Shown one piece after another: positions 33,001 to 36,000 of a stretch of 64,000 nt of DNA. A program made the position numbers. The DNA comes from Escherichia coli (GTDB lineage Bacteria; Pseudomonadota; Gammaproteobacteria; Enterobacterales; Enterobacteriaceae). The stretch lies in assembly GCF_045037415.1 (NCBI RefSeq), contig NZ_CP173438.1; one strand, 5' to 3'. Within the stretch, counting starts at the first letter, position 1; each line of letters starts with the position of its first letter.

Positions 33001-36000
33001 GGGCACTTTCACTTCCCGGGCAATCTGCTGATATGGCGATGATGTATTTTCATTCCCAACCATCCGGCGAATACGATGAGACAGATGATACCGGAATGTA
33101 TCCGGTACACCAGAAAGACTGGCCTTCAGGCTGTACACGCAGCCAAACCGTTTATCGTTGAACACCACATTTTTCTGGCTGAGGCCCCATTCTTCCCGAA
33201 GCGCGGCAATCAGTTGTGGTGTACGAGTAAGCAACAAGCGAAAAGGCAGTTCAAAACTGGTGACGTAATCCACATTCAGCAGGGCAATACGCAGCCGTTC
33301 TTCTGGTCCGGCCTCTGTCAGCCGACACTCCTCCAGAACATCCTGCCACTGCCGGCGAAGGCGTGGAGATTCATTCCGTTCGGTAAAAGAGTATTTATCC
33401 GCCAGATAGTCAATTCGTGTACGCATACTGAAGAGCATTCCGTATAAAGATTCAGCTGGCAAAACTTTATCAGTCCATAAAAATCAACGGAAGCGCAGAT
33501 GGTTCACACGTCCATTACCAACTGATTGTTGTCACAACCGGTAACACAAAGGACTGAACGACTGTTTTTAACAGCGGTGTTGCGTCATCCACCACCGTGA
33601 AACAACGCTGTGCAGGGAATCGTCCGCATCCCCATAACGGTCAAACATCGTGGCGTTGACAGAATGACCGACGAAAAGCCAGAAAGCGCTGATTCACTGA
33701 GCTGTAATCAATGTACAGCGCTGTACCGGACGATGGGTAATGGCGGTCACAACCGGTAACCCCAGAGACAATGCGACTGTTTTTAACGCAACATACTGAC
33801 CGGATGTATCACCCCGGGCAACCCGAAAACACCTTTCCACCCGGCATTGTCCGCCAGCACTTATCACCTGCCAGCTATGTTGCAGTAAATCCACCACTTG
33901 CGAACATTGTTCATCAACTGTGACACTGGCTCGCGGGTGACAAATACTCGTCTGGCTGAGCAGCAACAGGCATCGAATTGTTGCTCCTCCATGTTGTTCC
34001 CGCAACCAGCGTAATACCACCGACGATGATGGACTGGCAGTGTGATTGCTCTCAGTAATACGTTCATGCAGTTGTCGATAAAAGGAAGTGCAGAATGCAT
34101 GAATCTGTTGCCCGTAGATGTTTCCTTCTGTCGAATGGAGTATGAAGTGGACTGCCAGCAGACGCGGCCAGTGGTCAACAGCATGTTGAATAAAACGCCG
34201 GATGTCTCCCGGCTCTGAAATTAAGGCTTCGGTTATTTGCACGAAATGTTCCTTTTCAAACCCTGTTGAATTTTGTCAAACCGGTGCAGACACGCAGGAA
34301 AGCACGCCAGCACCGGTGTAATGCCAGTTATAATCAATAAGAATAGAATGACGAATCAGTCAGGAATAGCTATAACCTGCAGGCTGACTGGAGAATGTCT
34401 GCAAGAAGATGAACGTAAATGTCGCCAGCACCAGGGGCAGGGCCGGGTTCCACAATACCAGCGCTGGCATTTTGCACATTGCCAACGTACTGGCATCACA
34501 ACACGTTTCATGCTGCTGCTCCTCGTGATTCCTCAATTCGTTGTTGCATCCACTGCTCCACTTCACTTTTGTACCAGCGGCTGCTGCGCCCCAGTTTGAT
34601 GGGTTTAGGAAAATGCCCTTCACTGATCAGCCTGTAAAACCATTTATCGGTCATGCCGGTGAAACTGGTGATGTAGTTCATGTCGATCAGGGGATCGTCG
34701 GCACGCAGCCATACGCTGTCGTGGCTTGTTGTGGTCAACATGGTCAGAATGTCCTCAGTGAGATTTATGAAGAATGGGGTAATACGGGGAATGGGATGGC
34801 GTGCTGCTTTCAGCACTGCCAACCGGGATTGCCGGCAAGGCAACGGGCTTCCGGATCGCACACTCCACGGCGATCGCGGGCGAAATCACTGAACGCCCAG
34901 ATAAGGTCCTTAAACAGGGCTTCGCAGTCCGGTGACCGGCGATCCAGTACCACATCCCGGGTGATCTGCTTCTGGTACGGCTTTGCTTCACCTGGTGACG
35001 CGAAACCCAGCACATTACTCCAGGCATCCAGTATCAACCGATCCAGTTCGGGGCCGTCGAAATACTCCTGTCTGACGCACAGCACCACGTGGTATTCCGG
35101 CTTTTCCGGATGACGGGTCAGGAGCCAGCAAAGGTCGCGTCCGGGTTTCGCATTCATCAGCGCACTGACGGTTTCGATAAAATCCATACCAAACCAGGTC
35201 TGTCTGCTGTTGAAGGCGTTGTCATGTTCCCACGGCAGACGAAGCAGGATCCGCCGTATCCGTGAGCCGGACTGCTCACGCAGCGCACGCTCAAGGACGC
35301 CGATGACTTTGTTCTGATAAGATGGCCAGAAGGGTGCCAGGCTATAGTCGAAATAAGGAATAGCATTCATAAGATATGTTCCGTTATGCGCAGCCCACAA
35401 TGCGTCCTGCCCGTGAATGAGCTGACGTGTTATGGCTTGCGGATGAGATTGATGGAATAAGTGAAGAACCGGAGCAGAACGGGAAGACAAGGAACAAAAC
35501 ACCGGATGCAGGTTCAGGATGAATGATCTCCGTTGACTTCAGTTCACATCATTAATCAAGGCGGTAAGTTTTTACCGACGGAGTGTTTCCAGGAGCGAAG
35601 GCTCAGGCCTTAAGCTTCAGAAGTGAGGCTTACGAGGACGCCCTGCAGCAGGACGTTCAGGAACTTCATTGCAGCCGTAAGCACACAGCCCGTCTTTTTG
35701 CTCTTCTTTCGCCAGATAATGCAGGGCACCGCGAATATTATCGATGCTTTCAGGATCGTTGTGGCGCACAGGAATGTTGATGTTGTATGCATAATGCGGC
35801 TGATATGTACAGCGGTGCGCCGAACCACAGTTATACGTAATTGCCTGCCAGCATTCCGCTATCCGCTCCGCAAAGGGATATATTTTTTTAACCCTCTGAC
35901 GATCGATCCAGAAAACGACATGCGCATGAAAACCATGATCAGCCGTCCATTCAATCACCCAGAAGAAACCAACGATATTTTCAAATTGTTCCACCTGCTC

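Follow-up and report, generated by a model that had tools for sequence, protein, structure and literature searches.

HUH Rep proteins often recognise dyads and direct repeats close to the gene that encodes them and regulate their own expression, and the operator and origin regions with which we compared our locus are the geminivirus iterons and hairpin in the rep promoter, the bind and nic loci of pMV158 RepB and the Rep-binding elements of parvoviruses and adeno-associated virus. P4-like satellites and phages carry repeated promoter/operator cassettes before successive operons. Few core genes are as common in the cryptic-prophage-like islands of E. coli, and in the related islands of other genera, as those of the YagK/YfjJ ("inovirus Gp2", PF11726) family, which include yagK and yfjJ of the K-12 cryptic prophages CP4-6 and CP4-57. 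Inovirus Gp2-like genes are listed together with alpA and integrase as likely core genes of Pseudomonas transfer-messenger RNA (tmRNA) islands (10.1101/2024.08.29.610337). We analysed a stretch of 64,000 nucleotides (nt) from Escherichia coli (contig NZ_CP173438.1 of assembly GCF_045037415.1; hereafter "the window") which contains, on its minus strand, two copies of a ~70-nt block: T1 (35513-35584, or 35513..35594 including its left flank) lies upstream of a gene of 186 amino acids (aa) (gene 1, 34810..35370), and T2 (63031-63096) lies against the start of a 243-aa gene of the YagK/YfjJ family (gene 2, 62299..63030). We found that this block is strongly constrained and exists as two distinct types, that gene 1 is an intact gene and that gene 2 is predicted to have a HUH fold. 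Our preferred reading, which we hold tentatively and at slightly less than even confidence, is that the block acts at the DNA level, as a control region to which an island-encoded protein binds. A literature search using the block sequences and the YagK/YfjJ family found no paper describing the block, the function of the family or a regulatory element.

In its layout the block resembles the operators and origins of HUH Rep proteins, being a short dyad with phased direct repeats just upstream of a gene with a predicted HUH fold and being far more conserved than the surrounding non-coding DNA. It differs from them in that its hairpin is weak and it contains no recognisable nick-site consensus; one of its two copies also precedes a HUH-degenerate paralogue, and it is found in chromosomal integrase-type islands rather than in a plasmid or virus. 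As in the P4-like cassettes, one block is reused before two neighbouring units of an element which encodes an AlpA/Vis-family helix-turn-helix (HTH) protein, but the E. coli copies have no recognisable sigma-70 hexamers at a functional spacing and no sequence relation to P4 sites. The locus has in common with CP4-6 and CP4-57 both the gene family (gene 2 clearly belongs to it, and gene 1 is a probable remote relative) and an island context of alpA, YfjI/DUF3987, GTPase, DUF932, antirestriction, RadC and CbtA/YeeU modules; unlike the genes described here, however, yagK and yfjJ of K-12 have no block upstream.

A preliminary description of the window had placed a shared motif upstream of both genes, and this was borne out. 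The degenerate 25-nt pattern TTACCGCSTTGATKAATGATGTGAA has exactly two sites in the window, at 35543-35567 and 63061-63085, and none in 100 shuffles. When two 1.7-kb regions containing the copies were compared by sensitive BLASTN, 35575-35513 aligned with 63093-63026 (76.5% identity over 68 columns, E = 5e-8); nothing else in these regions rose above noise. T1 was also recovered by nhmmer (35584-35518, E = 3e-22), and the 3' ends of T1 and T2 align significantly when judged by shuffling (p < 0.0002). As the proteins encoded by genes 1 and 2 are related only at the profile level, the block does not owe its similarity simply to having diverged together with its genes.

Among 5,426 complete E. 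coli genomes, ~1,900 were matched by BLAST with either copy, and a single genome can have up to 7-11 such places. By contrast, an exact-core scan of 100,044 species genomes (one per species) gave a single Enterobacteriaceae metagenome-assembled genome, with 2 sites, and the same scan of a viral collection gave 1 site; all homologues of gene 1 are from E. coli. A wide taxonomic distribution is ruled out by these results and, as far as the scans show, the block is confined to the E. coli CP4-like island lineage. The idea that it marks the 5' ends of YagK-family genes in general also had to be abandoned, since nhmmer found no block upstream of K-12 yagK, of yfjJ or of a third Gp2-like gene in the window; the region upstream of this third gene has only a loose TTACC-N13-TTATG resemblance.

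The copies share a common core, AATGATGTGAA-N6/N11-TCAACGGAGATC, which follows a short dyad. The full order is the dyad, a few variable bases, (T/G)AATGATGTGAA, a type-specific insert (6 nt in T1 vs 11 nt in T2), TCAACGGAGATC and (A/T)(T/C)TCATC, after which T2 continues with ATGAAT, the start of the 243-aa gene, and T1 with CTGAAC. T1 consists of a left flank (TCCTGGAAACACTCCGT), the dyad CGGTAAAAACTTACCG (35577-35562), the core TTAATGATGTGAAC (35554-35542) followed by GAAGTCAAC, and a 3' part with GGAG (35531-35528), GATC and a CTG (35517-35515) at the position equivalent to the ATG. T2 consists of the dyad CCGTAAAGTTTTACCG (63095-63080), the core GAATGATGTGAAG, GTCAAT/ATCAAC repeats and a 3' part with GGAG (63044-63041), the ATG (63030-63028) and the first 15 codons of the gene; with its coding part, the nearly invariant T2 block occupies 62986..63096 (-66 to +45). 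The form common to both is GTAAA-N2-4-TTTAC, then TTAATGATGTGAA, then GT(G/C)AAY repeats. As read from the sequences, these repeats are GTGAAC/GTCAAC in T1 and GTGAAG/GTCAAT/ATCAAC in T2, with a 10-nt phasing between the last two units. A Dam site, GATC, is present within GGAGATC in both T1 and T2 (35528-35525 and 63041-63036); in T2 it is invariant as AGATCT, and in two T1 variants (loci L013 and L015) it reads GAGC or GTTC.

We compared the conservation of the block with that of its surroundings. Among 11 unique T1 loci pairwise diversity was 0.036 in TGATTAATGATGTGAACTGAAGTCAACGGA and 0.12 over the dyad, 0.2-0.42 in the leader which follows and ~0.1 at the start of the coding region. The synonymous divergence (dS) of gene 1 between the window copy and the other variants is 0.33-0.57, and between these same variants the T1 core has 0-2 differences in ~38 positions; the core therefore changes more than ten times more slowly than synonymous sites. 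For T2 we used 80 metagenome loci which were chosen by protein and not by motif (66 unique sequences); these are close E. coli copies only (87-98% identical) and are suited to a conservation profile, not to footprinting. T2 stood against the ATG of the 243-aa gene in all 80 loci, and in the 66 unique sequences it was nearly invariant from -66 to +45, with many substitutions and indels upstream of -87 and, past +45 in the coding region, frequent sites with minor alleles at 30-45%. Judged by this conservation, the block is functional in some way.

It could be argued that the block has no function of its own, T1 having been left over when the 5' region of T2 was duplicated long ago and the similarity being due to recent common ancestry or gene conversion among the many island copies of a genome. 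The presence of up to 7-11 matching places in a genome, the dead copy of a ribosome-binding site and start in T1 and the clear reshuffling of island modules near the block would all be expected under such a history. However, we regard it as unlikely because of the contrast between the T1 core and the synonymous sites of the adjacent gene, to which the indel-riddled leader can be added. Furthermore, the differences between the types (the 6-nt vs 11-nt insert and ATCATTC vs ATCTCTC) are kept in every strain, whereas conversion would erase them; homogenisation of T1 and T2 by conversion is therefore not the cause of their similarity.

The preliminary description had correctly noted that the codon of T1 aligned to the ATG of gene 2 is CTG. 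It had also suggested that this copy had lost its start codon, that gene 1 opens at a GTG further in (35502) and that the paralogue is degenerating, and none of these suggestions stood up. GTG 35502 is the mechanical start of a 230-aa open reading frame (ORF) in the window. In RefSeq, the Prokaryotic Genome Annotation Pipeline (PGAP) starts gene 1 ("hypothetical protein", WP_000991585) at ATG 35370, which is preceded by ACGGAA, and its large clusters of homologues, with thousands of members, are 186-191 aa long. The gene has its own ribosome-binding sequence, GGAA/GGAG, 8 nt upstream of this conserved ATG, and in the alignment of T1 loci conservation comes back sharply at ...AACGGA(A/G)CATATCTTATGAATGC. 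Between T1 and this start lies a leader (35371..35512) which is pyrimidine-rich and, by its length variation and diversity, variable and non-coding: indels of 1, 12, 13 and 14 nt separate the T1 loci, and among 25 unique T1-plus-leader sequences the interval from motif to ATG takes 8 lengths from 142 to 187 nt which are not multiples of three apart. The GTG of the motif is in frame with gene 1 in 6 of these 25 variants and both in frame and open in 2, so that we reject a longer gene 1 beginning at either GTG, that at 35502 or that of the motif, on account of the frame-breaking indels and the scarcity of an open frame in register. Tandem duplication of the initiation region as the origin of the leader was not supported either (T1 end vs initiation region of gene 1, p = 0.27).

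At the position of the gene 2 ATG, the 25 unique T1 variants have CTG (15 variants), TTA (9) or CTT (1). As none of them has a start codon there, the whole T1 class has long been fixed without one, and the CTG of the window copy is not damage peculiar to it; by its alignment, this CTG is a real relic of a T2-like initiation region. The ratio of nonsynonymous to synonymous change (dN/dS) in gene 1 is 0.11-0.3 for most pairs of variants, rising to 0.65 in pairs which include the divergent L013 copy. In an hhalign comparison residues 16-128 of gene 1 aligned to residues 8-144 of gene 2; the N-termini are thus collinear from the annotated ATG and gene 1 lacks nothing at this end. Gene 1 is intact, is maintained and starts at ATG 35370. 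The idea of a decaying copy translated from GTG 35502 has in its favour the alignment of CTG with ATG, the 230-aa frame in the window and a minority of variants with an uninterrupted frame downstream of the motif, but set against the evidence above it deserves hardly any credence. When translation initiation regions were sought as a GGAG-like sequence 5-10 nt before a start codon, T2 had one in all 80 loci (GGAG, 10 nt, ATG 63030), and T1 had kept the GGAG with no start codon in any of the 25 variants and no conserved frame downstream. Of the shared regulatory or translation-initiation element which had been proposed, the shared and strongly constrained element stands and the initiation function holds for T2, not for T1.

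Gene 2 is a clear member of the YagK/YfjJ family (PF11726: E = 5.2e-35, 121 bits against a cutoff of 25.8) and also matches PF23343 (REP_ORF2-G2P). The best matches of its predicted structure (predicted local distance difference test score (pLDDT) 75) are HUH nuclease/origin-binding domains, and the fold in this model is of the HUH Rep-like alpha/beta type. In its K-H-Y-H-V-I-L motif H101 and H103 are nearly invariant in the family, and in Y-L-V-K the Y and K are invariant in relatives, as in the YxxK catalytic-tyrosine motif; the protein thus has both the HUH motif and the YxxK motif, with its putative catalytic tyrosine. The corresponding motif of gene 1, E-Y-H-V-V-L, has lost the first histidine. 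Gene 1 matched no Pfam family at E <= 0.01, PF11726 included, and its AlphaFold2 model (pLDDT 42) was too poor to use for the fold, the order of secondary-structure elements being the same as in gene 2. It is a probable remote relative of the family and not a demonstrated member, because it has no Pfam match, its BLASTP match to gene 2 has E = 0.039 and the sole link is by profile-profile comparison (hhalign probability 66%, E = 5.5e-5, 110 collinear columns). The two genes, which had been called YagK-family paralogues, are probably very old paralogues, and the family name applies securely to gene 2.

We propose that the block may be the proximal control region of the Rep-like (YagK/YfjJ, HUH-fold) gene of E. 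coli CP4-type islands, present in two diverged copies. T2 would act directly at the start of the 243-aa gene, with its 3' third providing the ribosome-binding site, and T1 would act 142-187 nt upstream of the next gene of the canonical island, which is the remote HUH-degenerate paralogue and is followed by an alpA-like regulator gene; the ribosome-binding part of T1 would be vestigial. The 5' two-thirds of the block, which are almost invariant in both copies, would be the DNA-level binding site of an island-encoded DNA-binding protein, and its binding would control both genes jointly, as an operator overlapping the ancestral core promoter. Candidate binders are the Rep-like protein itself, its degenerate 186-aa paralogue and the AlpA-like HTH protein. 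The gene for the last of these (77 aa, 34508..34741, minus strand; PF05930, E = 1.2e-10) is directly downstream of gene 1 and is a candidate regulator, and in distant relatives, too, Gp2-like genes are found paired with AlpA genes.

These relatives of gene 2 (34-42% identical in protein, and mostly accompanied by an alpA gene) provide some indication of where the block came from. In the 5-6 sequences which we compared by eye, the homologous place is laid out as a T-run, TTTACA or TTAACA, N12-13, G(A/T)TATG, ~25 nt with GGAG, and the ATG, and a promoter scanner called TTTACA-18-GACAAT in locus L017 and TTAACA-17-GAAAAT in L022. Because of this promoter-like layout at the homologous position, the comparison suggests that the block descends from the core promoter of the gene, and we take its 3' half to descend from the ancestral gene's 5' end and promoter-proximal sequence. 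In L020, L028 and L029 the upstream ATG opens a frame that continues into the gene as an N-terminal extension (M-x-N-H-K-L-E-I...); in L017 it begins a short upstream ORF (2971-3003) encoding MDNHKPEII, with a TGA directly before the main ATG; and in T2 its counterpart is a GTG which opens an ORF of 12 codons ending in a TGA that overlaps the main ATG. A regulatory upstream ORF coupled to the main gene was considered and rejected in favour of an evolutionary trace, the ATG being in frame in L020, L028 and L029 and the T1 and T2 peptides not being conserved.

It should also be noted that in several distant Gp2-like genes (L017, L022, L024 and L032) a short upstream ORF ends at, or <=8 nt from, the main start; such ORFs may be translationally coupled to the gene or be what is left of an N-terminal extension. 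Upstream of the third Gp2-like gene of the window (36184-36260, minus strand) there is a 23-codon ORF, its ATG 64 nt upstream and its TAA overlapping the main start (ATGCCTAA), which contains a perfect 7-bp hairpin (GAGCGAA...TTCGCTC) and is preceded by the TTACC-N13-TTATG mentioned above, a loose echo of the layout of the relatives.

Several observations weigh against a protein-bound control region derived from a promoter. A consensus scanner for sigma-70 promoters (-35/-10, 16-18 nt spacing) found 0 sites on either strand of 35300-35700 and 62950-63450, and the hexamers of the E. coli block equivalent to those of the relatives are TTTACC and GTCAAT, 20 nt apart, in T2, with GTCAAC in T1. Promoter-like calls in the regions of the relatives were no commoner than in shuffles, and the view that these relatives have the dyad and repeats comes from 5-6 sequences read by eye. 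An operator does not account for the conservation of the first 45 coding nt in T2, and the dyad is weak as a hairpin, with its 3' arm among the more variable positions. Both protein-DNA binding as the source of the constraint and the identity of the candidate binders are inferred. Sites for CRP, Fur and IHF, DnaA boxes and a CTTG/ATA nick site were looked for by eye and dropped, as they were partial matches only and fell on variable positions.

A different use of the same DNA would be as an origin-like site, in which the block is recognised or nicked by the HUH Rep-like protein so that the excised island can replicate by a rolling-circle-type mechanism or be mobilised, with expression affected only secondarily. 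What is visible of a Rep origin is the sequence layout of the dyad and the phased GT(G/C)AAY repeats. As single-stranded DNA hairpins, however, the dyads are weak (-4.6 and -1.4 kcal/mol), with that of T2 no better than shuffles, and the hairpin loop differs between T1 and T2. There is no recognisable nick-site consensus, and the likeness of CTTGAT to the nick sites of pC194 and phiX falls on variable positions; T1 precedes a paralogue with E-Y-H in place of the HUH motif; and replication of these islands is without support. We consider an origin-like role unlikely but a live alternative, and the control region bound by an island-encoded protein remains the reading we prefer.

We also considered whether the constraint acts on RNA, the block being a conserved 5' untranslated region (in T2 together with the start of the coding region) which is the target of a trans-acting RNA, of an RNA-binding protein such as the ProQ/FinO-like protein of the island or of a cis-antisense RNA, and which controls translation or stability. 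The invariant ~110 nt of T2 include the Shine-Dalgarno sequence, the ATG and the first 45 coding nt and have hardly any synonymous variation, a layout typical of starts controlled by antisense or small RNAs; in the RNA fold of T2, AAUGAUG base-pairs with CAUCAU over the start codon, and this fold is more stable than shuffles (z = -2.9); and a gene of the ProQ/FinO family is found in the same islands. On the other hand, the T1 fold is no better than shuffles (z = +0.26), and RNAalifold on 13 copies gave -1.29 kcal/mol with 0 compensatory pairs, that is, no consensus structure and no covariation. In a possible T1 stem (GAUUAAUGAU with AUCAUUCAUC) the substitutions, as read from the sequences, are uncompensated, which together with the missing consensus fold rules out conserved RNA structure as the main explanation. 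No antisense promoter or terminator was found by the scanners: 0 intrinsic terminators in 35300-35700 and none inside the block, where the dyad is AT-rich and followed by CCTTGATT and is not a GC-rich hairpin with a T-run. Rfam at the gathering threshold matched nothing in the window other than an ALIL pseudoknot elsewhere, and E-value searches of both regions gave nothing meaningful. T1 moreover has no start codon to regulate. We consider control at the RNA level unlikely but a live alternative, favoured by the conservation that extends into the coding part of T2, and keep a DNA-level control region as the preferred reading.

With regard to the setting, the window is 100% identical to uropathogenic E. 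coli chromosomes, e.g. that of strain 4/0, and is a mosaic pathogenicity-island region. Its gene order is dsdCXA, the third Gp2-like gene (188 aa, 35617..36183, minus strand, with an H-A-H motif), T1, the 186-aa "hypothetical" gene and the alpA-like HTH gene, beyond which lies cdiBA and, 27 kb from T1, T2 with the 243-aa Gp2 gene and a restriction endonuclease. The third Gp2-like gene is directly upstream of T1, and no terminator-like site was found between the two. In many other strains there is a single array of T2, the 243-aa gene, T1 (~935 nt past T2), a ~190-aa gene and the alpA-like gene, facing the usual CP4-type-island module of GTPase, DUF932, antirestriction, RadC and CbtA/YeeU genes; T1 lies ~935 nt downstream of T2 in 18 of the 80 loci selected by protein. 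T1 of the window is preceded by a different upstream gene, yet it has the same left boundary.

After the alpA-like gene there is a 182-aa gene (33694-34242, minus strand) with no Pfam match; in L013 and L015 the neighbouring genes at the same position match PF27752. The cdiB/cdiA contact-dependent inhibition locus is found just past the 182-aa gene, both in the window and in L001 (10293-14001). The ALIL pseudoknot (RF01497; 56285-56401, minus strand, 117.6 bits) is the programmed-frameshift signal of an IS3-family transposase, in agreement with the RefSeq annotation. The ~1.1-1.6 kb upstream of T2 (63100-64000 in the window, viewed on the minus strand; 17533-19080 in L010) contain no convincing gene and are T/G-rich on the gene strand and highly variable among strains, with many indels; an 82-aa "hypothetical protein" placed there by PGAP on the opposite strand (63135-63383) looks doubtful, and two weak terminator-like sites lie ~100-250 nt upstream of T2 (63312-63290 and 63212-63196). 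Small opposite-strand ORFs of 42-49 aa are annotated or called in the T1 leader of some strains (L005, 2604-2753; L015, 1886-2014; both minus strand), and the T1 leader of the window has no opposite-strand ORF of at least 40 aa. In relatives, the module adjoins defence-type genes (TIR-domain proteins, a type I restriction subunit, GmrSD and a WYL protein), which in L017, L018 and L032 lie downstream of the Gp2-like and alpA genes and are also found in L029 and L020; because of these neighbours it is suggested that the islands with relatives of the module are carriers of defence cargo.

For the annotation of these islands our results provide a correction, in that gene 1 is intact and starts at ATG 35370. 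For the YagK/YfjJ family, the block and its HUH-fold 243-aa member provide a testable handle, and the block can be used as a probe for binding and nicking assays and as a reporter target; apart from this handle and the annotation, it is otherwise an ordinary lineage-restricted regulatory region. It is a doubtful but far-reaching possibility that the block is the DNA site, origin-like or operator, of the HUH Rep-like YagK/YfjJ family which is core to CP4-type and to tmRNA/tRNA-integrated islands. If it is such a cognate Rep site, then supposedly cryptic islands would be equipped with a functional pair of Rep and site by which they replicate or are mobilised once excised, the catalytically degenerate paralogue and AlpA acting as regulators at the second copy of the site.

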